In this document: in pieces, positions 1,648 through 55,503 of the stretch | How the letters are laid out: the number at the start of each line of letters is the position of its first letter | Numbering within the stretch: the stretch's first letter is position 1 | DNA from: an uncultured virus (IMG/VR IMGVR_UViG_3300030330_003596) | Lineage: Duplodnaviria; Heunggongvirae; Uroviricota; Caudoviricetes | DNA length: 64,000 bases | Virus record (IMG/VR): IMGVR_UViG_3300030330_003596 | Reading direction: 5' to 3' (one strand) | Program-made: the position numbers and the translations under genes | Notes under the pieces: model-generated | Seen by the model: the letters and a program-made list of their open reading frames with translations, nothing else | Told to the model about the DNA's origin: nothing | The model's database searches: none

Positions 1648-1978
1648 CCTCCAACAAAATAAACAGTTCTAATGTTTCTGTTGTGGAAAACGGGCCAACT
1701 CCATCAAAATTGGTTCTATATACCATATCGCTCCCATCAAATAGGCCGACTTCACGAATTACCTTTCCTTGAATACTACTTCCTGATATAGATACTTTTA
1801 CTTCAAGAACATTTAAATCTGATTTTGTAATAATAATAGATGGAGTAACGCTTAAGGGAACATCTAAATCATTAGCCGTAGGGTTAGTGCTATTACCCCC
1901 TAAACCAATTTTAGCACTATCAAATAAATTATCTTTGATGTGAGTAGCGACTAATGTTTTTAATTTATCTGTAATCAT
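1640..1978 (-). CDS. Small tail/baseplate structural protein
   Basis: 112 aa; IREVGLFD motif resembles tail-collar/fibre N-terminal domains; position in the tail block. Confidence 0.5.
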   Translation of the reverse strand: MITDKLKTLVATHIKDNLFDSAKIGLGGNSTNPTANDLDVPLSVTPSIIITKSDLNVLEVKVSISGSSIQGKVIREVGLFDGSDMVYRTNFDGVGPFSTTETLELFILLEVE

Positions 1979-4900
1979 GCTAAATCTTCCTCCGCTAAAT
2001 CAGTAATTGTAATTGTTCCTGCACCAAAACCAAGCGGTAATCCAAAACCAAGCGGTGTAGTGAATCCTAATGCTGCCCCCGTTGAACTTCTCTTACGCAC
2101 CAACAATTTAAGTTCTTTGGTGTTGAGGGTGTCTAAGAAATTAAATGATACTTCGTTAGAAGTTAAATCCGCACTTCTTAATGCAGACTTTGTTTCTTTA
2201 CTAGCAATTAATAATTCTGAGAAAATATCGGATAAGTCCTTCGTATATCTTCCTAATTGTAATTTAATAAAACCAGTAAGTTGATGTTCCATTTCTAAAA
2301 CAATAAATTCTCCAGTTTCAATATTTTCTCTAGGAAGGGAAACAGTTACAATATCACCGACTCTCAATTGGTTGATTCCTTTATTCTGCATCGTAAAAGA
2401 CAACTTTTGATTAAATCTTGAATGTATTCTAAGTAGTTTGGTTGCTCTTTTATCTACTTCTTCTTGTGTAAGTAATGTGCCATCAACTACTTCTAATGTC
2501 TTCCTTCCCCTGCTATTGATGGAACGAATATCTTTACGGGTCGCTTTGTGTGAAGAACCATATACAATAATTTCATTAAAGAAATCAAATAAAGTAGTCT
2601 GTTTTTCAAATTCAGATATTAAATAATCTCCGCTATCGTCAATAGTAATATCGGTATAGTATTCATTTTCATCTTCTGGTGCGATTTTAAAAACATCATT
2701 TTCTTCTAAAATTTTCATATCTTTTTTATCTAAAATATAATTGATAGCAGAATATAAATCAACACCTTGATAATTTGGTGCTAAAAACATAGGAGTATCT
2801 GTTCCTGTCGTTTGGAATTGTATTTCTTCTGTTTCTAAAAGTTCATTGATTAAATCTTCTCCTTCTAATCCAATGCTAACAGTTGTTCCAATACAGGCTC
2901 TATTGGGTGAAATTTTTAATTCTTTACGGCTATTAACAGTAAATGTTTCAGAAACGGAAACGACTCCCTTTCCATTAAAACCTTCACCTAAAGCAAAACT
3001 TGAAAAATTTTCAGAATTTGAAGAGGTAACTGTTATTTTTTTATTTTCATCACCATCTGAAAAATATAGATTGTAATCTCCATTTGGAAAATTAGTCTGC
3101 ATAAAGTTTTTACTATCTCTTAAAACCAAATGATTATCAGTAGATTGTTTATCAGTATCTACCAAAACAAACATAGACAATACTCCTTCATTTTCAGTAG
3201 TATTTCCTGCTTCTTTCGTTATTCCTTCTCTTGAAGTGTAGTCCTGTTTTGGTTTATACACTTCATTACTATTCGGAATTTTAGTATAAGAAGAACTTAA
3301 AGTGTTTAATAATATTTTATCTGGGAAGAAATCATAAATGCAAGTTTCATTTGGTTGTAATATTCTATATGCTGAATTACTAGATAGAGGAGTATCTGTA
3401 ACAATTTTATGTGAATTAGCGTCTGAGGAATTAACTTCATGAGAAATAACATAGATTAGATTATTAGGAACAACATTATTCATTCTTTTTCCAATATTTA
3501 AACTGCTTGTAGTTGCTGTTGGGGTTGAAGTAGAGAATGTAATGTCTGTTCCATCAGTATGTTTTCCACTCTCTATTGCTAAATAACAACCTGTTATGTC
3601 GGTAAGTTTTAGAAATTGATTTTGAATAACAGGAACTGTGCCTGAAGCCGTTATATTATCGAGGTCAAAATCATATTCATATACTGTTCCATTAGAAGAT
3701 TTGGAACTAGTTTCATCTACATCATAGGTAAATGTTAAAGAATCGGTATTTGAATCAGTTGCAGCAGTATCTAAAACAACAGTAGTAGTATTAGTAATTG
3801 AAGAAATTTTTGTTCCAGTAGGAATACCAGTTCCCGCAACGACCATACCACTCGATAAAACAGAAGAATCCGCAACAGTCAAAGTAGTGTTTCCTTGTTT
3901 GGTGCAATTCTGTGTATAAGAAGGAATACATAATCTTGGTTTAAATACCATATAACTTCCATCTACTGCATAAGGTTTTGAAGTTGTAAAATCAGAACCT
4001 ATCAAAGCCTCGTCATCAAATCTGTTTTTAAATTCTTTAAAATGCGTATCTGATTCAATGGTAAAGTGTTTTGTAGAAAAGGGCTTCATACTCGTTCCTG
4101 TTCCATCAACGTGTTCTACTGTATTTGTGTTCTTCAAAACTCCTGTTGTAGCACCAACTTCAACTTGACTGGCCCCACCATCTTCAATAGAGAATCTATC
4201 TAAAGATACTCCTAACATACCATAATAAAGAGTATTATTCAAGTGCGGAAATAAATTAGTAAAGAAAAACAAGTCTGTTAAATCAGCAGCGTCTATTTGT
4301 GCAAAATCAGAAAATTTATCATTTACAAAAGGCAAATAAATTTCGTCATTTGCATTAGCAGGAAAAGCCACATTTCTTGCATACTCATAGAGCCAATCAT
4401 TGACATCATCTCCATATCCTGTGTCGCTGGGAACAATGGCACATTTAAGAGGGTGCAATCTGCCATTACCTACTCTTGCAAAAGTATCAACACGATTTCT
4501 TCCGTCTACGTCTATAACAGTAAATTTATATTTAACTGCATTTTGTGGGGCTGTTGCAGTAAATCCTCCACTATTTTTTCTGGTAAAATTTGCAAAGTCT
4601 GTTAATTCAAAAGCAGTTTTAGGAGACGCAGGGTTCAGTGAGTTACTACCATTACCAGCACCAGTAGTAACAGTTCCTATTAAATGACCAGAAGTGCTAT
4701 CAAAAAGAAAATCGCCATCATCTAAAGTTTGATTAGAAGTAAATGTAATAATATCGGCAGTATTTCCTGAATTCTTAGCAATTGAAGAAATAGCACCAGA
4801 ACCCGCTAAAGTTACCTTTTCCCAACCGATTATACCAGAATAAATCGTATCTTTTATTTCTCTTTTAATTGGTTTTTCTGGATTTACCCTATTAAACATA

Positions 4901-7900
4901 AAATCAAAAGTGAGTTCCGTTAATCTCATTAAGCCAAATCTCTTAAGGTTGCTAATATCAATATCTGTTGAAAAATCAACCGTTTGATAATTAGAGTCTG
5001 TGAGAGATAATCTATTTGTTGTGTTTAAAGAAGAGTCTTTTTGTTCTTTGTTTTCTATCAAAAATAAATTATATTTAGATAGATTAAACTTATTATCTAC
5101 ATTAAAAATACTATCTTTTCTTAAAGAAGAATATGGCAATATGTCTCCTATTGTATAAAGAAATAGCCTTGAGGCAGATTCATCATTATTACTATACTGC
5201 GCTTCCAGAAGGTCAGCGACTCCAGTTTTAATAAAAACGTCATCTTCATTATCATGTATTCTTCTAAAAGTACCGCTTGCTCCATAAGGGGTAGTTAAGC
5301 CTCTTAAGTCAAATGGTAGTGTTCTATATGTAGAAAGAGTTTTATTAAACTCATTCAAATTTTCACTCGCTATATTTGGCTTGAACTGATAATTTGATGT
5401 AAAGTAATTTAATTTTGACCTGTTATCATATAGTTTTGGAACAACTACATCGTTAGTGTTTGCAATACTCCTATTATCAGTTAAAAAATTACCAGTAATA
5501 AAATCCTTAGACTTATAGTAGAACTGTCCATATGAACGTGAATAGTCTCGACCTCCTGTTAATTCTTCTAAGTTTAGAGGCACTAATCCTCTATTTGTTT
5601 TATCTGTTGTCGAAATTGAATTAAAACTTTTAGGATGTGGCAGGATGTTAATTTTTCCTCCCCACATATGCTTTCCATTAATAAAAACCAAATCATTGGA
5701 CTTTTTAGTGCCTATATACAATTTTTCCCCAACTGTAAAGGCATGAACAGCCCTATCTAAACGTATTTTTTGTTCATGGATTGTTGTTCCTCCAGCATCA
5801 CTATAAGTTTCGACTACAAAACTAGTAATTTTACCAACAAATGTTTTTATTCCTGTTGTAGTGGTAGAACTAGAATTACCAACAAATATTAAATCATCTC
5901 GCTTTAAATCATAAGTGGAATAATTAGTAGATACTAAACTATCAAAAGTGTTAGAACCATGAAGAACACTCACTGCCCCAGCAGCAGTAAAAGTATTATC
6001 TTCGTTTGTAAAATGATAATCAGTTTTTCTACCTAGAGTTATTGGTATATATGGAGCAAGTTCTATTTCAGTAATATTATCTTTTTTTGCTGTCGAAACA
6101 ATTTCAAAATCAATTAAAGTATTTACTGTATCAAAAGAAGATTTTCCTGCACTACCATGCTCATCCTTTAACAATGTCTGGAAAGCAAAATCATTTGAAA
6201 TAGATGAAGGGCTATTGATAGCATACCCTACTGCTCCTTCATTTGTATTTTGGCTTGTTCCGATTAAAGAAGTATCTTCTCCGCCAAAGAATACTGCATC
6301 TGTTGTAAAATTAAAAGTAGCAGCAGAACTTATTGTAAATGTTGTATCGCTATCAATAGAAACAATTGTTGCCCCTATTGGAATAAAGGTATGTTCTTTT
6401 ACTTCCATACCAACTAATAAGTCCGAAGTATCTGCAACTGTTACTGTTGTATTTGATGATGTTGTTGTGGCACTTTTTCTAATTGATTTAATTTTATTGC
6501 CTGCCGTAAAAACAAATCCTCTATTCGCTGCTCCAGTTAATGAAGAGGGTTTATTTGTAGCCAAAGCATTTGAACCTAGTGCTTTCGTTAATACATAGTT
6601 CTTTTCTGTATCTATATACAATGCTTCAGAATTAAGTTCTGTTATCGCAGGTGTAATTATTAATCTTCTTTTTGTGCTAGAAGTGTGATTAGAGAGATTT
6701 GTAATTTCGCCAACATAACCATTTGGCCCAAATAACCTAACACCAGCAAAAACTCTTCCCTCTAAAACAGAAGTATTTGCTATAAGAACATCTAAATCAA
6801 TTTGAGTGTCTCCTAAAGCAATAGTATGTGTGTCTCCTGAATTAAGTTCTTCCAGTTTATTATATGGACTATTGCTAGAATAAATAATATCTTCACTAAA
6901 CAAAGTGTTAAGATTCACAATAGGAGAAAGTAATTTGTTAAACTTATCCCTTCCTTTAATCTCTACAATAGTTTGTCCATTTTCTTTTTTGGATTCTATG
7001 CTTTCTATTTCTCCATTGAATCTTTCAATGAATAATTGATATTGTCCTTTTGTAAAACTCAAAGGATTAGTATTATACGAATCATCACCAAAAGATAATG
7101 TAAGCATATTTTTAACTGCATCACAAGCAGTTACAGACGCAAATCTTCCTTCATGGTTTAATGAAGTAAAGGAAACATACATCTTACTAAACCTTCCATT
7201 TAGTAAGTGAGTATCGAGCATAAGTGTGCCATCATTTGCGTTATATGCTCGCCTGTGAAGCACTTCTCCGCTTGATGGGCTTACGGTCTGTGCAGTAAAA
7301 ATTCCATCATCCTCGCCTCTTGCATAGGGGTCTGAAGTGTCATTTTGAAAGGTAATCGTCTGCGTTGTTCCGAAGAGAGTTCCAAAAGAATTAACAATTA
7401 AAATTTTATCGCCTAATTTAACCTCATCACCTGTATTTAAAACCGTTCCTAAATCATATTCAGTTTCAAACGAAAATACAAATGCTGATGTTGATGAATC
7501 ATAAGTGGCCTTTAATGGGAAAAATTCATTTAAGTCACTACTATGAATATTATGACGTGCTCTATATGCAGTAAATTCTTTTATTTTTCTTGGAATAATT
7601 CTAGCATTGTCTATGATAGAAGTTTCTGAAAATCCACCCTTACCATCAATAGATTCTGTATTTATGTGGTCATAAGCATTATATAAGAAGTTTGATTTTG
7701 TTGGTGAAAAGTCATAATGTAAATATCTTGTTGGCCCAGTATATGCTGGCGAATTGATTTCATCATCTGATATTCTTCTAGCATTAACATAAGTTAAATT
7801 GTAGTTAGTTGTATCAGCCGTCGCAGAATAATTTTCATTACTTGTATAATTAGTAGATTGGGCCGCATCTAAATCTCTTAATTTATCTGTTAATTTAACT

Positions 7901-8631
7901 CTATGTGTGAATTTGCTATAATCAATAACCGTTTTTCCAAAGTCTTGAACTGTAACAAATGTTATTGAGGGGTCACTACTACTTAAAGTAAAACTGTTTG
8001 ATGTTCCTGATTCTCTCATAGCAAAATATTTAGTGTTGTGGTCTAATTCTTTTTCCTTATCTAACCCATCATAAAAATAAAATGATGGTCTAGCAACAGC
8101 AATATTTCTTGCTGGCTGGTCTTCCTGATTAGGAGTTAAAGCGGTGTCTTGAAGCAGACCTAAAGAAAGAGCAACAATATCTGTATTTTGTGTAACTTGA
8201 AATATAATGAATTTGGTATCTTTTGGTATTTCATTACCCAGTTTTGGTTCAAATTCAAAAGCATCGCCTATTAAATCCTCTGTTTTAACTTCGGTAATTT
8301 TAGCAAAGTGGTGCTGTAAAGGAGAATCCGAATATATAAGAACAAAGTAATCATTTGTTGTAAATTTTAGTGTTGTAGCATTCCAATCAGTTGGATTAAA
8401 TCTAACACCTGTCGTAGTTAAAGAATCATAACATTTGATTCTAAATCCTTTTGTATTAGCAAGATTAGAATTTTCAGTAACGGTTCCGCCAAAACCAGTA
8501 ACAGATACAGAAACTCCACCATGTTTAACAATAGCAGTATTGATTCTGTCTCCGTTGGAAAAACCACCGAAAGAAGATAGATGTGGATTTGTTGGTGCAT
8601 TAAAGTCATCCCCAGTAACTCTCAAACTCAT
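1975..8631 (-). CDS. Large tail tip / hub-central fibre protein
   Basis: 2218 aa downstream of the tape measure gene; hub-like C-terminus (LRVGDIVTV...FIVLEMEH); beta-rich. Confidence 0.65.
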   Translation of the reverse strand: MSLRVTGDDFNAPTNPHLSSFGGFSNGDRINTAIVKHGGVSVSVTGFGGTVTENSNLANTKGFRIKCYDSLTTTGVRFNPTDWNATTLKFTTNDYFVLIYSDSPLQHHFAKITEVKTEDLIGDAFEFEPKLGNEIPKDTKFIIFQVTQNTDIVALSLGLLQDTALTPNQEDQPARNIAVARPSFYFYDGLDKEKELDHNTKYFAMRESGTSNSFTLSSSDPSITFVTVQDFGKTVIDYSKFTHRVKLTDKLRDLDAAQSTNYTSNENYSATADTTNYNLTYVNARRISDDEINSPAYTGPTRYLHYDFSPTKSNFLYNAYDHINTESIDGKGGFSETSIIDNARIIPRKIKEFTAYRARHNIHSSDLNEFFPLKATYDSSTSAFVFSFETEYDLGTVLNTGDEVKLGDKILIVNSFGTLFGTTQTITFQNDTSDPYARGEDDGIFTAQTVSPSSGEVLHRRAYNANDGTLMLDTHLLNGRFSKMYVSFTSLNHEGRFASVTACDAVKNMLTLSFGDDSYNTNPLSFTKGQYQLFIERFNGEIESIESKKENGQTIVEIKGRDKFNKLLSPIVNLNTLFSEDIIYSSNSPYNKLEELNSGDTHTIALGDTQIDLDVLIANTSVLEGRVFAGVRLFGPNGYVGEITNLSNHTSSTKRRLIITPAITELNSEALYIDTEKNYVLTKALGSNALATNKPSSLTGAANRGFVFTAGNKIKSIRKSATTTSSNTTVTVADTSDLLVGMEVKEHTFIPIGATIVSIDSDTTFTISSAATFNFTTDAVFFGGEDTSLIGTSQNTNEGAVGYAINSPSSISNDFAFQTLLKDEHGSAGKSSFDTVNTLIDFEIVSTAKKDNITEIELAPYIPITLGRKTDYHFTNEDNTFTAAGAVSVLHGSNTFDSLVSTNYSTYDLKRDDLIFVGNSSSTTTTGIKTFVGKITSFVVETYSDAGGTTIHEQKIRLDRAVHAFTVGEKLYIGTKKSNDLVFINGKHMWGGKINILPHPKSFNSISTTDKTNRGLVPLNLEELTGGRDYSRSYGQFYYKSKDFITGNFLTDNRSIANTNDVVVPKLYDNRSKLNYFTSNYQFKPNIASENLNEFNKTLSTYRTLPFDLRGLTTPYGASGTFRRIHDNEDDVFIKTGVADLLEAQYSNNDESASRLFLYTIGDILPYSSLRKDSIFNVDNKFNLSKYNLFLIENKEQKDSSLNTTNRLSLTDSNYQTVDFSTDIDISNLKRFGLMRLTELTFDFMFNRVNPEKPIKREIKDTIYSGIIGWEKVTLAGSGAISSIAKNSGNTADIITFTSNQTLDDGDFLFDSTSGHLIGTVTTGAGNGSNSLNPASPKTAFELTDFANFTRKNSGGFTATAPQNAVKYKFTVIDVDGRNRVDTFARVGNGRLHPLKCAIVPSDTGYGDDVNDWLYEYARNVAFPANANDEIYLPFVNDKFSDFAQIDAADLTDLFFFTNLFPHLNNTLYYGMLGVSLDRFSIEDGGASQVEVGATTGVLKNTNTVEHVDGTGTSMKPFSTKHFTIESDTHFKEFKNRFDDEALIGSDFTTSKPYAVDGSYMVFKPRLCIPSYTQNCTKQGNTTLTVADSSVLSSGMVVAGTGIPTGTKISSITNTTTVVLDTAATDSNTDSLTFTYDVDETSSKSSNGTVYEYDFDLDNITASGTVPVIQNQFLKLTDITGCYLAIESGKHTDGTDITFSTSTPTATTSSLNIGKRMNNVVPNNLIYVISHEVNSSDANSHKIVTDTPLSSNSAYRILQPNETCIYDFFPDKILLNTLSSSYTKIPNSNEVYKPKQDYTSREGITKEAGNTTENEGVLSMFVLVDTDKQSTDNHLVLRDSKNFMQTNFPNGDYNLYFSDGDENKKITVTSSNSENFSSFALGEGFNGKGVVSVSETFTVNSRKELKISPNRACIGTTVSIGLEGEDLINELLETEEIQFQTTGTDTPMFLAPNYQGVDLYSAINYILDKKDMKILEENDVFKIAPEDENEYYTDITIDDSGDYLISEFEKQTTLFDFFNEIIVYGSSHKATRKDIRSINSRGRKTLEVVDGTLLTQEEVDKRATKLLRIHSRFNQKLSFTMQNKGINQLRVGDIVTVSLPRENIETGEFIVLEMEHQLTGFIKLQLGRYTKDLSDIFSELLIASKETKSALRSADLTSNEVSFNFLDTLNTKELKLLVRKRSSTGAALGFTTPLGFGLPLGFGAGTITITDLAEEDLA

Positions 8632-50609: not shown

Positions 50610-51010
50610 ACTGTATCATGTTATGGGAGTAAGCCACAGGCTATAATACTGGCGGTTTCACCTTCAAATAATTAAAGTTAATGCTTCAAAACAGGGCTTT
50701 TAAATCAATTGCTCTAAATGAGAAAAAATAAAAAATTTGAAACAAAGCCATATGGTTGGGGATTCTAATATGGGTTTAATCGTGTTATTAAGTTCTGGTT
50801 TAGGTCTATTGATTTCGTATTGGTCTTGCTCTACGCTTTTCTATAAACCGCTATTGGTAACTACAAAATGTTTGTTTACGTCATGTTATGACGAATAACT
50901 ACCTATGTTTCATTATACTCAAATGAGTAGTTAATAACAACCCTAACACCATATGGTAAGGGGAAACTTTGTGTCTCCATTTACCCTAAAATAGATACCA
51001 TTATAAGAGT

Positions 51011-51175
51011 ATGGCAAACAAACAAGGCAAGTGCGAATGTGGCAAAATGATGGTATTCAACCCTTTGAAATTCTATGGCGGTTGGGGCTGCGATTGCTGG
51101 TTTGAAGATGGACTACCAGAATATGACCACGATATTGACTATTCTCCAGAATGGGATGATGGAGATTGTCCTTGA
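51011..51175 (+). CDS. Small Cys-rich acidic protein (54 aa), cassette gene
   Basis: MANKQGKCECGKMMVFNPLKFYGGWGCDCWFEDGLPEYDHDIDYSPEWDDGDCP; followed by a GCC-TTCG-GGC hairpin. Confidence 0.6.
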   Translation: MANKQGKCECGKMMVFNPLKFYGGWGCDCWFEDGLPEYDHDIDYSPEWDDGDCP

Positions 51176-51270
51176 GCCTTCGGGCCATTTATCAAAGATA
51201 CGACCATATGGTTGGCTTTGCCAGTTTACGAAACCCCAGCGAACTGGGGCTACGGAGGGAAAAGCCAGCA

Positions 51271-51777
51271 TCATTCCTCCTCTTGACCTCCTTCGTCGGT
51301 TTTAACCGCAGGTGGGGTCAAAGCAGGGATTTCACCATTCATAGTGCCATCCCAGCGACCTTCTTTGTAGCCCTTTACAAGAGCATCATAGGCTTTCTTA
51401 CCCATTGATTCAGCAAATGCCTCAATGTCTTCAAAAGCACCGCCAGTTCGCCCATGAGGGAGAATAACGGTAGTAATCAAGTCTGCATTAGTAATACCCG
51501 CAAAGGCAGCAATGACCGCATTCTTCACAGAATTGGCAGACAAATCCACTTCTTCGGGCAAAGCCGATTCTCGACCTCTTCGGGCGGCTGGGAAATCCGA
51601 ATACGGACTTCCAATTGAACGAATAGCAGTCCAGTAAGTTGAACGCATATCATCGTTATCTGTCGCATTTCCAAGTGTTATAGACAAAGAAATCGCATGA
51701 CCGACATCTCCCCTATCTTCACGTTCAAGCCATGCTTGAACGGCATTTGTGTTCTTAATCCAATTTTCTTTCTTCAT
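51271..51777 (-). CDS. Uncharacterised protein, paralogue 1
   Basis: 168 aa; YWTAIRSIGS, ARRGRES, PHGRTGG, KEGRWDG; GGAGG RBS. Confidence 0.75.
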   Translation of the reverse strand: MKKENWIKNTNAVQAWLEREDRGDVGHAISLSITLGNATDNDDMRSTYWTAIRSIGSPYSDFPAARRGRESALPEEVDLSANSVKNAVIAAFAGITNADLITTVILPHGRTGGAFEDIEAFAESMGKKAYDALVKGYKEGRWDGTMNGEIPALTPPAVKTDEGGQEEE

Positions 51778-51960
51778 ATCAATTCCTCCAAAAAGGGTTT
51801 GATGCTCCGTTTTCCCTCCGAAGCACTAAATCGGTGGCGATAGCGGATAAGGTTGCTTTTGCATTAACATTCGCAAAGCGAAAAGCAACCATATGGTTTT
51901 ACTTTGAATAAACCCGAAGGGAGCAGTTTTACATCAGCAGATGCTCAGGATGGCGGAATT

Positions 51961-52221
51961 TTAACCCATTAGAAGGTCATAACGGCCTCTAAGGGTAAAT
52001 GGGTAGGGTTCACTCCAAACAAACTCATATTCCCTGCGAAAAGCGTCAAAGAATCGCTGTTCAATATAATTGCCGTTGTCTCTTTGAAACATAAGGCTCA
52101 TTTTCTCAACAACCACGTTATCAATGTTATGGATGGTTGCAAGTGTTTTTGCTGTTTGGATGTAATGTCTGCGTTGGAACATGATTAAAGCCTTATGAAC
52201 CAATAAACATGGTATTGACAC
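51961..52221 (-). CDS. Hypothetical cassette protein (likely start MFQRRHY)
   Basis: Single ORF between sites 51888 and 52232. Confidence 0.55.
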   Translation of the reverse strand: MSIPCLLVHKALIMFQRRHYIQTAKTLATIHNIDNVVVEKMSLMFQRDNGNYIEQRFFDAFRREYEFVWSEPYPFTLRGRYDLLMG

Positions 52222-52297
52222 AAAGTGTCATACCATATGGTTTTACTTTGTACAAACCCCCCGAAAGGGGCTACAAGGGGGATATAGCCTTGTAGTA

Positions 52298-52822
52298 TCA
52301 TTCCTCTTCGGAAACCTCCGTATCTGCCTTAACAGGCGTAGGTTGAATGACAGGAACGCCATCATTCATTTTTAGACCATCCCAACGACCTTCCTTAATG
52401 GATTTAATCATGTAGGAATGAGCCTTACTGCGGTGGGAATCAACCAATTCGCTGAAAGACTCGTAAACTCCACCAGTACGACCATGTGGCACGATAACCG
52501 AGAGAATCAAGTTGTGGTATTCAGTAGGGATTTGAGCAATAGCATTTGCCACATTTTCCTCCACAGTCGCCAAAACAAGTTCCTGTTCGTCCGAGAGAGT
52601 AGATTCTCGGCCTCGTCGTGCAGAAGGAAACCCCTCCATAGTAGAGCCTATTGAACGAATTGCTGTCCAATAGGTGCTACGAAGTTCGTCAGTTTTTGCA
52701 TTATCTCCCAATGTGAGAGAAAGCATAACTGCGTTCAAATTGTCTGATTCAGGCTGATTTTCAGCCCACGCTCTTACTTTGTTTGTATTCAATGTCCAGT
52801 TTTTAATCTTCATGTTTTTCAC
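52298..52822 (-). CDS. Uncharacterised protein, paralogue 2
   Basis: 174 aa; same motifs as 51271..51777; GAGGTGA RBS. Confidence 0.75.
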   Translation of the reverse strand: MKNMKIKNWTLNTNKVRAWAENQPESDNLNAVMLSLTLGDNAKTDELRSTYWTAIRSIGSTMEGFPSARRGRESTLSDEQELVLATVEENVANAIAQIPTEYHNLILSVIVPHGRTGGVYESFSELVDSHRSKAHSYMIKSIKEGRWDGLKMNDGVPVIQPTPVKADTEVSEEE

Positions 52823-52982
52823 CTCGTCCTTTGCAGGAATAGATACTTCAAGTCTGTTATCCCCCTTGAAGCACTAATTCGGATGAATAATCAGATATGG
52901 TTGTTTCTATGCAAAGCAATAAACAACCATATGGTGTTGCTTTGTTGATACCTAAGCCTATTTGAGAGTAAATGAGTAAATC

Positions 52983-53243
52983 ATGCAAGAAGTATGGATA
53001 ATCGAGCAAAAGACAGGAAACGAATGGAAACCACAGATGTATCTTGGCGTTCATCGTTGGGAAACTAACGCAACGGCAGAAATGCACCGACACACTCAAA
53101 ATCTTCAAATCAACGAAATGCGAACTATTCCAGATTTGCGCTCTCCGAAACGTGGTGAAGGAAAGCGTGTTTTTGGCATGAAAATGCGAGTAATCGCTGA
53201 AATTCCATCACACTTCCGAGTTTCCAAACTCAGAATCCGTTGA
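52983..53243 (+). CDS. Hypothetical cassette protein
   Basis: 86 aa between sites 52926 and 53289; followed by a TGGAGGG/TCCTCCA hairpin. Confidence 0.6.
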   Translation: MQEVWIIEQKTGNEWKPQMYLGVHRWETNATAEMHRHTQNLQINEMRTIPDLRSPKRGEGKRVFGMKMRVIAEIPSHFRVSKLRIR

Positions 53244-53966
53244 TGGCCTTTGGAGGGCTTTGTCCTCCATTGGGTACTACAAAGTCTTACCATATGGTTG
53301 TAATAATTGCTTTGCACTTATTTTAACCATATGACGGCTACGCCACAACACACAGGGAAAAGCCTAATTCGGTTTTTTTTGCGCTAATATGTGTGTGTGG
53401 CGAATGAATAGAAAGAAACGCTGCCTACTCCATTAATCCGACTTATTACCGTAGTTTGTTATTCATGCCTTCGTGCGGATAACTAGTATCTCTCACACTC
53501 CATGTTGCTTTCGGGGTTTATTGCGTTTGTTTCGGCTTTGTTTCCGATTGGTATATATGGCCAATCAACCAAAGGAATTTGAAAAGGTGGGAAGAAGAAC
53601 TGGGTATCTCCACTATTGATGCGATTGAGTCGCACTCACTAATAGACGCTCATGGTTTCATATATGAGCCAATAGACCATTCTTACGAACTTGATTAGTA
53701 GTCAAGCGCCTTTTGAGCCTTAATCGTTTTCACAGGGAACAATAATCAGACATTTGCCCATCATATTGCTTTGTGCCACACTACATGGAAGAATGTGCAT
53801 TACCTCCGTCTATTGAGGCATTGATGCTATTCCCCTCCAGTCTTGCATGGACTGGAGCAATAAATCGCTTATCAAATCAAATAAGGTCTTAGATGTGCAA
53901 AGCAATCACAACCATATGGTTTCACTTTGGGAAACCTTACGGTTAATGCATCTATATGCTTAAACC

Positions 53967-54215
53967 ATGTCGAGAGAACACGTAATCCGTCTGCACCGAA
54001 CAGGAAAAACACTCAAAAACTATTTTGAAAACAAGTTTCATGATGCAATGTATACCGATTTGCACATTTATACTGATGAACCAGATGCTATGATTGCATT
54101 ATTTATGATGGAAGAAGAGGCTCGGCACATTTGTAGCCAAGTAAAGAAAGTTATGAGTGACCAACTCATAAAAGAACTTGAAGAACAAGTATTAAGAATC
54201 TTTAACACCTCCTGA
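53967..54215 (+). CDS. Hypothetical cassette protein
   Basis: 82 aa between sites 53911 and 54285. Confidence 0.6.
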   Translation: MSREHVIRLHRTGKTLKNYFENKFHDAMYTDLHIYTDEPDAMIALFMMEEEARHICSQVKKVMSDQLIKELEEQVLRIFNTS

Positions 54216-54414
54216 GTAGGAGCGTAAAACTGCTCATTCCTAAGCAAGAATCAAAAGGCTTCCTTCGGGTCAAAAACAAAGCAGACCATATGGTTGGATT
54301 AAATCGAAGAACGTAGAATGTTCTTATTTACCCGTAGTCAATCCAACTGAAATAGGGAAAACATTTGCGCCCCCAATTTTCTGTCAATTTTTACACCCCT
54401 CTTTCAACTGTGGT

Positions 54415-54780
54415 TATATTAATTCGTATTCATATTCTAATACTAATATTAGTATTATAGTAAAATAAATCGGTTGTCTCATCGTTGTTGGGGAATGAGA
54501 CGAGACAACATATGAGAGATTCTTCAAGGTTGTGTAACATAAGTAAAAATATATTTTATATTTCTCATTATCTCATCTATCTCATCATCATCATCTTCTT
54601 CTTCTTCTCTTACATATACCCTTATTTTCTTATAGGCTATGTAGAGAGATATATTCATGATTCGCATGAGACGAGACGAGACAACCCTTTTTTGCAGGTT
54701 TCTGCAAGGTTTTGCAGGGTTGTGTTGCATAACCCTATCGTCTCATGATGAGACAATAGCCGAGACAGTCTCATGTGTCG
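54415..54780. repeat. AT-rich palindrome plus GAGAC/GTCTC repeats (candidate replication origin)
   Basis: Perfect 20-bp palindrome at 54438-54457; ATGAGACGAGAC at ~54495 and ~54666; inverted GTCTCAT copies; three TGCA(A)GG repeats. Confidence 0.5.
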
Positions 54781-54960
54781 GATAACAAAAATTATTTCAT
54801 TGGGCAAACTATTGAAAGAAATAAATATGATTTGTTTTATTGTAATGTATTGTTTTGATTTGCTTAATTTAGAATCAAGTGAAAGAAGTTGCGTTGGGTC
54901 TGAGCCTGTCTAAGCCAAAGGTTAGTAATGCCTCCATCGAGATTGATTGAGAGACAATTC

Positions 54961-54977
54961 TGCACTCCTTTATATAC
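54961..54977 (+). promoter_or_regulatory. Putative promoter TGCACTCCTTTATATAC
   Basis: Contains TATA box TTTATATA; identical 17-mer at 63930-63946. Confidence 0.65.
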
Positions 54978-54987
54978 CTAAGACAAA

Positions 54988-55503
54988 GTGAAGATGTTGC
55001 CCGAAAAGGGTAAGGAGAGAATATACATGGATGATACAACATGGGAAAGCCTCGTTATAGAGGTGAAGGAATACCTTGAAGCCGACACTACGCTTGATGC
55101 AGGATTGCGTCAAGTGATTGAACTGAACCTGCAAATTGGCACAAATAATGCTAATGAGCGAACTGCCGCAGAAGGAGCATTAAAGGCTCTTTTGAAGGGA
55201 AGAGACGGAACTCCATTCCGTCGAGGCCAAAAAAGCGCAGTTCCAGCCGCAGTTCGTGTTTCAATCGACAGAATTTGTGGAGTTGTTGAAGAAGCCGCTA
55301 TTGGCTACTACAACCACGATGCAGTAATTGGTGCAATTACAATGAAGCATATCAAATCTGGTGGCGGTTCTTACGATAATGCAGAAGATTACGCTTCTGC
55401 TGTTGTTAAGAGAACAAGAAACAATTTGGGCAAAATGTTCAAAGAAGGTTCTTGGGATGGCTCGGTTGATTCCCTTTTAGGCGAATCTACTGAAGAACTC
55501 TGA
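54988..55503 (+). CDS. Uncharacterised protein, divergent paralogue 3 (likely start MDDTTW)
   Basis: PFRRGQKSAVP, HIKSGGGSY and KEGSWDG align with paralogues 1 and 2. Confidence 0.7.
   Translation: MKMLPEKGKERIYMDDTTWESLVIEVKEYLEADTTLDAGLRQVIELNLQIGTNNANERTAAEGALKALLKGRDGTPFRRGQKSAVPAAVRVSIDRICGVVEEAAIGYYNHDAVIGAITMKHIKSGGGSYDNAEDYASAVVKRTRNNLGKMFKEGSWDGSVDSLLGESTEEL

Follow-up and report, generated by a model that had tools for sequence, protein, structure and literature searches.

We describe here an array of small gene cassettes in an uncultured tailed virus, represented by a stretch of 64,000 nucleotides (IMG/VR record IMGVR_UViG_3300030330_003596; the whole of this stretch is referred to below as the window), in which the cassettes are delimited by nine copies of one junction module, each composed of a shared 10-bp palindromic core, ACCATATGGT, and flanking arms that covary as stems. 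Among related viruses whole cassettes have been inserted, deleted, moved and inverted, and homology between the arrays ends inside the 10-bp core. One of the cassettes encodes a new, abundant structured RNA. By its gene content we assign the virus to the group-B-like magroviruses, tailed viruses of Marine Group II (Poseidoniales) archaea.

A first-pass annotation of the window, made without database searches, had proposed that the palindromes delimit an integron- or shufflon-like array of self-contained expression cassettes, or alternatively that they are operators of a single dimeric regulator. The comparison of 75 arrays presented below bears out the self-contained cassettes and their recombination at a symmetric core, which would explain the mixed orientation of the genes.

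A palindromic core confined to a single array

The nine sites, between positions 50747 and 54294, comprise eight exact copies of ACCATATGGT and one GCCATATGGT. With up to one mismatch allowed, ACCATATGGT matches 13 times in the window, whereas dinucleotide-preserving shuffles gave a mean of 1.47 and a maximum of 5, and none of 100 shuffles reached 13; the four matches that lie outside the array are scattered and carry one mismatch each. The inner 8-mer, CCATATGG, occurs 11 times, nine times in the array and twice elsewhere (21178 and 29543). The nine palindromes had been placed exactly by the first-pass annotation, against about 1.5 expected by chance in the whole window, and our recount likewise gave six sites with two arms at 3-11 nt and three with one arm, units of 201-694 bp (reported as roughly 200-700 bp), and six units with one small gene each in the orientations +,-,-,-,+,+, as borne out by the open reading frames (ORFs).

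The same confinement was seen in related viruses. In four complete relatives of about 94 kb all exact 10-mers (8, 9, 8 and 8) fall within one array of 3.5-4 kb, and the 10-mer is absent from the rest of these genomes, which disposes of the possibility, raised at the outset, that a comparable density of the motif elsewhere would remove the signal. Ten more records, found through the motif itself, contain 5-9 copies per record in a single cluster and none elsewhere. Eight further records were found independently of the motif, via the capsid protein; each of the five whose completeness is 98% or more contains a single array, with 6-10 clustered copies of CCATATGG and 0-2 strays, and the three incomplete ones have 0-1 copies. 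The core reads ACCATATGGT at eight of the nine window sites and in 506 cores across the 75 arrays. One IMG/VR record of 184.7 kb (G006; L003, L016, L336, L353) has two arrays 94 kb apart, with 8 and 6 cores; it consists of two distinct magrovirus genome copies head to tail, whose arrays differ, and two lineages were probably joined into a chimera during assembly.

A scan of 185,579 prokaryotic species genomes for the full site with both arms returned 39 stretches, none of them titled Poseidoniales. Thirty-seven are the sole site on their contig, which is about the chance expectation. The other two (L219, L220) share a 14.7-kb contig that had been assigned to a flavobacterial metagenome-assembled genome (MAG); given its five complete sites this contig is virus-like, and it is most likely a misbinned magrovirus fragment. 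We dropped the idea of a host operator, the full site being no commoner in these genomes than chance would have it.

The core includes an ATG on both strands and is a trap for gene calling: on ten promoter sides in 19 arrays the longest ORF begins at the core (distance 0), upstream of the likely real start.

Junctions are built from a shared core and covarying stem-loops

Reading outward from the core at the sites of the window and of 18 other arrays, we found on either side ATGGT, a spacer, CTTTG, and then the complement of the spacer ending in ACC, the complement starting 0-2 nt past CTTTG in 133 of 225 sides. In predicted folds CTTTG forms a TTT triloop closed by a C-G pair and the core half forms the base of the stem, so that a whole junction can be written GGT-x-C(AAA)G-x'-ACC-ATAT-GGT-y-C(TTT)G-y'-ACC.

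Pairing within the arms is conserved. In 42 of 200 sides the 3-4 bases beside GGT have their full complement just ahead of the first ACC downstream; 200 sets of swapped-spacer decoys gave a mean of 1.5 and a maximum of 6 such sides, and per-position pairing of the spacers is 62% versus 32.5% in the decoys. On the promoter sides of two paralogue (A/B) cassettes (14 sequences), 91.5% of the cells are paired and 7 of 16 pairs show a compensatory change, values reached by none of 500 shuffles, with slid controls of the same alignment giving 37-53% pairing.

The arms move with the cassette, while the core is common to neighbours, and the outermost half-sites are armless on the backbone side. Spacers of 3-5 nt are found in 66 of 83 terminator-side arms versus 39 of 87 promoter-side arms (19 arrays), and 46 of the 87 promoter-side spacers measure 6-9 nt. 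The earlier statement that arms at gene 3' ends are always short is therefore correct as a tendency and not as a rule, and its counterpart, that arms at 5' ends are often longer, stands.

Cassettes are gained, lost, moved and inverted at the core

For comparison among relatives, arrays were split at their cores, the resulting units were clustered, and the 75 arrays were oriented by a boundary 17-mer, ACAAAGCCATATGGTTG, which at the window's first site (50747) is a single-copy landmark, present in 74 viral stretches at one per array. Sixty-two of the arrays have both ends; the number of sites ranges from 1 to 12 (mode 9), and spans reach at most 5.4 kb.

Cassette order differs between genomes whose flanks are conserved. 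When shared cassettes have different neighbours (17 pairwise comparisons) homology stops 4-22 nt past the centre of the core, and when the neighbour is the same it extends some 170-200 nt farther, as far as the compared stretch goes. Closely related sets of arrays differ by single events, as in one trio reading J-af-ag-C-A-H-ah-ai-B, ...A-ai-H-ah-B and ...A-ai-ah-B. Seven DNA cassette families occur in both orientations across the 75 arrays. Whole-cassette inversions with both ends at cores are seen for family aa (86% identity over 738 nt) and family ae (73% over 335 nt); the inverted match of family G reaches the core at one end, and those of families N and A span the cassette interior only. 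At the protein level as well, cassette families relocate, and one is inverted between arrays L008 and L009. A fixed gene order and orientation had been named beforehand as the outcome that would favour operators; both vary among relatives, with the junctions in the core.

The most recent event seen is an insertion that distinguishes two close relatives, L385 and L319, whose flanks are 97.2% identical and whose shared cassettes are 95-99% identical. A core that is whole in L319 is interrupted in L385 by a cassette of 314 nt with minimal arms, and the junctions read ACCATATG followed by CTTTG...CAAAG followed by CATATGGT, with CATATG on either side. Degenerate junctions of this kind number 18, versus 422 full cores with at least one arm.

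Promoter-like, leader and 3' signals

At sites that face the 5' end of a gene, the last bases of the distal stem arm are ACC, and an A/T-rich box follows. Alignment of 115 distinct short-leader sides on the ATG gave an A+T fraction of about 0.86 at -25 to -22, a stretch rich in C/A at -33 to -28, and a preference for A at -3 (0.68) and for C at -1 (0.59); the commonest distance between the core centre and the ATG is 51-56 nt. Such a geometry is that expected of an archaeal promoter composed of a transcription factor B recognition element (BRE) and TATA box that gives rise to a leaderless mRNA, and ACC with the A/T-rich box some 25 nt ahead of a leaderless ATG would represent a BRE/TATA promoter.

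A second class of cassettes, comprising those of the paralogues and the one without an ORF, has a leader that opens with T(A/T)(G/T)TGCT(T/C)C, followed by a hairpin; the common start was located at 51778-51830, 52814-52875 and 53830-53860 (minus strand). In the paralogue leaders a GGAGG-type Shine-Dalgarno sequence follows the hairpin. Since paralogue and RNA cassettes have one leader start, the promoter-leader module itself seems to have been duplicated between cassettes. Among contigs assembled from public sequencing runs, one from a metatranscriptome lies on the 168-aa gene and stops at 51824, about 24 nt past ACCTTAT (51847-51853) and within the conserved leader motif, which is weak evidence for a transcript start at this place.

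Where a gene 3' end faces a site, both sequence and folds show a GC-rich hairpin and a short T-run before the arm, in agreement with the hairpins previously noted just ahead of the next site. They do not meet the bacterial terminator consensus, and hairpin, T-run and stem-loop together may act as a terminator or as a stabiliser of the 3' end. From end to end, a gene cassette of the leaderless class would comprise one half of a core, a stem-loop with CTTTG in its loop, a TATA-like promoter element about 30 nt ahead of the ATG, the gene, the GC hairpin, another stem-loop and half of the next core.

Three other promoter types were considered. Bacterial promoters (CTTTG as a -35 element, or the Bacteroidetes -33/-7 type) were dropped on the basis of the archaeal gene set, which makes the host archaeal and bacterial promoter logic inapplicable, and because sigma-70-like promoters are not enriched (11 versus 15.7 expected). 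N4-like hairpin promoters for a virion RNA polymerase were set aside given that the 2218-aa ORF (1975-8631) belongs to no polymerase family and has a weak match to an unnamed PHROG only. ACCWTAW as a general promoter box of the virus was rejected since outside the array it occurs at background level (50 matches on both strands of about 60 kb); a backbone gene encoding a third paralogue uses a canonical TTTATATA box.

A structured RNA cassette

The RNA of the ORF-less cassette (53580-53858, minus strand) was folded with RNAalifold from seven relatives into a structure of 86 pairs, 32 of which show compensatory changes; many of the pairs are G-U, and thus valid on the minus strand alone. A metatranscriptome contig covering 53584-53791 has a depth of 265, versus about 10 on the paralogue genes nearby. 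No Rfam family corresponds to this structured RNA of about 280 nt.

Candidate proteins acting at the site

The search for a recombinase was extended from the window to G002, a complete, 94.9-kb relative that is collinear with the window at 75-94% nucleotide identity and has 98 ORFs of at least 90 aa, of which 68 were compared with Pfam and 88 with PHROGs. Catalytic domains of the tyrosine-recombinase, serine-recombinase, DDE and HUH types were not found among these, and no tyrosine-recombinase family was found among the 23 large and 13 small ORFs of the window, in which the first-pass annotation had recognised no recombinase.

Two viral proteins nevertheless bear domains of interest. One, of 142 aa in G002 (L015:12661-13089), consists of the DNA-binding 'Recombinase' domain of large serine recombinases only, without a catalytic domain (PF07508, E 3e-7; phrog_95, E 8e-15, positions 226-312 of 651). 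The other, of 418 aa, weakly matches a Myb/Tc3-like helix-turn-helix at its N terminus (E 6e-4 and 0.012) and nothing else; we considered it as a transposase and rejected it given that no DDE domain and no PDB or NCBIfam match was found.

Of 19 arrays examined, 18 contain the 168/174-aa paralogue family, usually in two copies, and a search of 1.84 billion representatives gave 96 relatives at E <=1e-3. The family belongs to no Pfam, PHROG or NCBIfam family, the ESM Atlas returned nothing, and the only PDB sequences matched are designed helical repeats. The model of the 168-aa protein is confident (predicted local distance difference test score, pLDDT, 91.9) and all-alpha; Foldseek gave no match (best E 1.2) and VIA-align only generic three-helix bundles over residues 2-60 (Z <=8.6). 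These searches of sequence and structure gave no assignment, and we abandoned the attempt to name a function. Across 47 members only two residues are nearly invariant, both of them Gly, which argues against the paralogues being an enzyme.

Cassettes of the window and genome setting

The nine cores bound eight units: six with a single gene, one (53289-53911) devoid of long ORFs, and the first, whose only ORF is of 42 aa (Table 1). The conserved terminal unit that contains this ORF (50752-50952) stays in last place in the arrays of relatives. The 54-aa protein has CxC, CxC and C-terminal Cys motifs, is possibly zinc-binding and belongs to no known family. In the 168-aa cassette the distal arm of the promoter-side stem-loop is itself the BRE/TATA-like element aaaagcaACCTTAT, and the gene has a structured 5' untranslated region with GGAGG; the 171/174-aa paralogue is 49% identical to the 168-aa protein. 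None of the 13 small proteins matched a Pfam or PHROG family.

Table 1. Sites, cassettes and neighbouring features of the array (coordinates of the window)
Feature	Position	Strand	Remarks
Boundary site GCCATATGGT	50747..50756		Left arm only; CAAAG 50743-50747 abuts on backbone side
42-aa hydrophobic ORF	50770..50898	+	In conserved terminal unit; no family
Core 2	50948..50957		Right arm only, CTTTG 50967-50971, spacer 9
54-aa Cys-rich protein cassette	51011..51175	+	TATA-like ACCCTA 50983-50988; 3' hairpin 51176-51185
Core 3	51203..51212		Between convergent gene ends; CAAAG 51193-51197, CTTTG 51216-51220
168-aa paralogue cassette	51271..51777	-	Promoter-side stem-loop 51847-51894; 3' hairpin 51234-51249
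Core 4	51888..51897		CAAAG 51874-51878 (spacer 9, promoter side of 168-aa gene), CTTTG 51902-51906 (spacer 4); fold z -2.1
73-aa protein cassette	51961..52182	-	TATA-like ACCATG 52208-52213; 3' hairpin CCCGAAGGG 51913-51921
Core 5	52232..52241		CAAAG 52221-52225, CTTTG 52246-52250; fold z -2.2
171/174-aa paralogue cassette	52298..52813	-	Promoter-side stem-loop, ACCATAT 52895-52901; 3' hairpin 52259-52270
Core 6	52926..52935		Between divergent genes; CAAAG 52912-52916, CTTTG 52940-52944; fold z -3.6
86-aa protein cassette	52983..53243	+	TATA-like ACCTAA 52950-52955, 33 nt before ATG; 3' hairpin 53251-53269
Core 7	53289..53298		CAAAG 53280-53284, CTTTG 53310-53314 (spacer 11); fold z -5.3
Structured RNA, ~280 nt	53580..53858	-	ORF-less cassette 53294-53915; TATA-like ACCTTAT 53881-53887; end CCTTTT
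Core 8	53911..53920		CAAAG 53898-53902, CTTTG 53925-53929; fold z -2.6
82-aa protein cassette	53967..54215	+	TATA-like ACCTTA 53934-53939, 33 nt before ATG
Core 9	54285..54294		Border with replication-side backbone; left arm only, CAAAG 54277-54281
Third paralogue, outside array	55027..55503	+	28% identical; preceded by canonical TTTATATA box (54968-54975) and GGTAAGGAG

The array lies at a strand switch. On one side a long minus-strand block encodes the structural module (portal, large terminase, capsid protease, major capsid and tail genes), and on the other a plus-strand block, which opens with a helicase from about 55 kb, encodes the replication module. The window also encodes tRNA-Leu and tRNA-Arg. 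G002 adds a chaperonin, an ATP-dependent ligase, a clamp loader like replication factor C (RFC), a split family-B polymerase (PolB), XPF/Hef, a Cas4-like nuclease, a class II ribonucleotide reductase (RNR) and a homologue of transcription factor B (TFB, or TFIIB). The nearest record (G001) is a 45-kb fragment in which the motif is absent, a blastn search of the array region against a phage collection gave no matches, and relatives of the 168-aa protein are encoded on ten viral contigs, G002 among them.

Magroviruses are among the most abundant archaeal viruses in the surface ocean and, to our knowledge, neither they nor their hosts are in culture. Our assignment draws on a tailed-virus structural module, a near-complete archaeal-type replication module, the tRNA-Leu and tRNA-Arg genes, RNR, a GroEL-type chaperonin and the split PolB. 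The available text on group B/B1 magroviruses (Philosof et al., PMC5434244) describes a matching gene set, with two tRNAs and a split polymerase.

The TFB homologue of G002 (L015:10645-11523) has a Zn-ribbon (PF08271) and matches NCBIfam NF001658 (E 4.5e-8); virus-specific promoters could be its targets, and the main text of the founding magrovirus paper makes no mention of TFIIB/TFB. Adjoining the array, the region 54400-54800 is AT-rich, with repeated GAGACGAGACAAC / GTCTC inverted repeats, and may be a replication origin.

Mechanism of exchange

Given these observations we consider it somewhat probable, at slightly better than an even chance, that the region is a hyperplastic array of accessory genes whose junctions are at once portable promoter/terminator modules and points of recombination, with exchange carried out by viral or host machinery. 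Each junction would act as a portable promoter/terminator (insulator) module, and because it is repeated and palindromic, cassettes could recombine there in either orientation, presumably via excised circles. Exchange from core to core by the recombination machinery of virus or host, helped by the cruciform-prone structure, is judged the most likely route; it would proceed as has been proposed for the promoter-early stem-loops (PeSLs) of T4-type phages, and a dedicated recombinase would be unnecessary. Since the core is invariant, a core-binding protein would still be required, either as a regulator or as a recombination factor.

Several observations weigh against this proposal. The promoter and terminator roles are drawn from geometry and one RNA-contig end. 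RNA structure does not explain the promoter-side stem-loop, which is placed upstream of the inferred start of transcription, and the same structured arm at both ends of a cassette is a better fit to a mobility signal than to a promoter element. The sequence shared at the point of exchange is 10 bp, and 6-8 bp at the L385 insertion, which is short for homologous exchange and more like the overlap region of a site-specific system. About 60% of the virus's proteins belong to no family, which leaves room for a novel recombinase. In contigs from sequencing runs the sole joint seen connects 51202 to 52232, at two cores, with a short side of 27 letters; loose contig ends at 50725/50758 and 51198 indicate that other sequence adjoins the same cores in other samples, and we count neither the joint nor the loose ends as proof of rearrangement within a population.

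A second proposal we regard as possible though clearly the less probable: a dedicated site- or structure-specific system, integron-like in its logic, in which a viral or host enzyme that our searches did not recognise would bind the hairpin-flanked core and cut in the central ATAT/CATATG, giving excision, integration and inversion, with the symmetric overlap leaving orientation free. The 10-bp core is invariant across viruses whose cassettes have no detectable DNA similarity, and the arms, at both ends of every cassette, are kept in structure and not in sequence around a conserved loop; the armless half-sites of the backbone are as they would be after integration of a circle into a bare core. 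The precise L385 insertion, with CATATG on both sides and 6-8 bp shared, the frequent inversions, the two-paralogue family present in 18 of 19 arrays and the standalone DNA-binding domain of large-serine-recombinase type (PF07508, phrog_95) would all find a place in such a system. Weighed against these are the absence of tyrosine, serine, DDE or HUH catalytic domains by Pfam and PHROGs in G002, array paralogues that keep only two glycines nearly invariant among 47 members and whose all-alpha model has no recombinase match (Foldseek best E 1.2), and a core-to-pentamer distance that varies from -1 to 11 nt, unlike known recombinase core sites. In its strongest form, which we put forward tentatively and hold to be rather doubtful, the exchange would be integron-like but enzymatically new, an as yet unrecognised viral factor reading core and triloop hairpins as folded or cruciform DNA; with the same reserve, it would excise, integrate and invert autonomous promoter-gene-terminator cassettes, the RNA gene included. 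Candidate factors are the two array-resident paralogues and the standalone protein with the serine-recombinase-type DNA-binding domain.

In a third proposal the array is otherwise static, and its sites serve solely as operators, or as an upstream activating sequence, through which a single dimeric regulator would control the small genes together. The core is a perfect palindrome, its centre is fixed about 52 nt before the ATG in the largest cassette class, and the sites are confined to one regulatory region between divergent modules. However, order and orientation are not fixed and the junctions fall inside the core; one site (51203) separates the 3' ends of two genes; the arms show the covariation of stems, unlike protein half-sites; and the full site is absent beyond chance from the host-type genomes among the 185,579 scanned. 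We therefore regard operators alone as improbable. As a complete explanation the operator proposal of the first-pass annotation fails on the variable order, but binding by a regulator is compatible with the data as the force that conserves the core, given the fixed place of the core upstream of promoter-like elements.

Most improbable is that the cassettes are small non-autonomous transposons, bounded by terminal inverted repeats (GGT..CTTTG / CAAAG..ACC), mobilised by a transposase in trans and inserting into ATAT or TA with target duplication: the cassette ends are indeed inverted repeats, a duplication of 4-6 bp (ATAT/CATATG) is one reading of the L385 insertion and the 418-aa protein has its weak Myb/Tc3-like helix-turn-helix, but no DDE domain and no PDB or NCBIfam match was found for that protein, cassettes were never found outside the array in the complete relatives and ten further records, and the backbone flanks hold the full palindrome and not TA alone.

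Comparison with known systems

The array shows the turnover of accessory genes in such viruses, with cassette flux visible in natural variants down to about 97% identity, and it affords a first sequence-level view of the promoter, leader and 3'-end signals of Poseidoniales, which appear to include leaderless starts about 25 nt past an A/T-rich box and a class with structured leaders. A defined 10-bp site with hairpin arms also makes it possible to test for a new recombination or regulatory protein. The main texts of three magrovirus papers (PMC5434244, PMC10160649, PMC11706807) make no mention of palindromes, promoters or cassettes.

The integron- or shufflon-like character claimed for the array holds for the cassette logic and not for membership in either class, given that IntI or Rci recombinases, attC cores and promoterless cassettes were not found. 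The attC core consensus of integrons is GTTRRRY/RYYYAAC. Like an integron, the array is a series of small mobile gene cassettes whose order varies among relatives; the boundary sites are conserved as a folded hairpin over sequence (the arms covary here), a resemblance only; and the backbone-side site is simpler than the cassette sites. In contrast to integrons, no IntI or other tyrosine recombinase was found in G002 or among the window ORFs, the core is ACCATATGGT with no GTTRRRY-type core at the junctions, and the cassettes have a site at both ends, a promoter-like element of their own and mixed orientation and are not promoterless units read from a common Pc promoter. Shufflons provide alternative 3' ends of one gene through a dedicated recombinase acting on asymmetric repeats. 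With these and related systems (Rci/sfx, Hin, Cin) the array shares the inversion of DNA segments at short repeated sites; it differs in that its sites are intergenic and bound complete genes, which are gained, lost, moved and inverted, and in that a recombinase of the Rci type was not found in G002 by Pfam or PHROGs.

The closest known kind, in our analysis, is the PeSL, the mobile regulatory cassette of T4-type phages, together with a similar motif in the halovirus HGTV-1. The available accounts of PeSLs (Arbiol et al. 2010, PMC2839356; Comeau et al. 2014, PMC4122927) describe repeated motifs of a promoter with a stem-loop or terminator between ORFans in hyperplastic regions, with related phages differing by indels or replacements at the motif and mini-circles arising; small circles are the proposed route of exchange. 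The array resembles them in having its motif between small genes without known function, in a hyperplastic region whose content varies among relatives, and in showing indels and replacements among related viruses with junctions in the motif. The stem-loops are recognised here by covariation, and the promoter would be recognised by its BRE/TATA-like geometry and one RNA-contig end. In HGTV-1, a TATA-like box and an inverted repeat precede most ORFs of the left part of the genome and have been likened to PeSLs, and roles in transcription and shuffling were suggested for the motif (Sencilo et al. 2013; available text of PMC3950731). So far as that text goes, HGTV-1 is like our virus in being tailed and archaeal and in having a TATA-like element together with an inverted repeat in front of small ORFs; a palindromic junction core, bidirectional cassettes and comparative evidence of shuffling are unmentioned in the description available (PMC3950731).

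Four features set the magrovirus array apart from PeSLs and are new with respect to them. The promoter of PeSLs is of the sigma-70 type, whereas the putative promoter of the array is BRE/TATA-like and its host archaeal; the invariant 10-bp palindromic core shared by neighbours has no counterpart in PeSLs; the arms are mirror-symmetric and covarying, with a conserved triloop, and stand at both cassette ends; and the cassettes occur in both orientations, with frequent inversion. A further difference is that all copies are gathered in a single array. The idea of the mobile regulatory cassette is thereby extended from T4-type phages to archaeal viruses, in a palindromic design that frees orientation.

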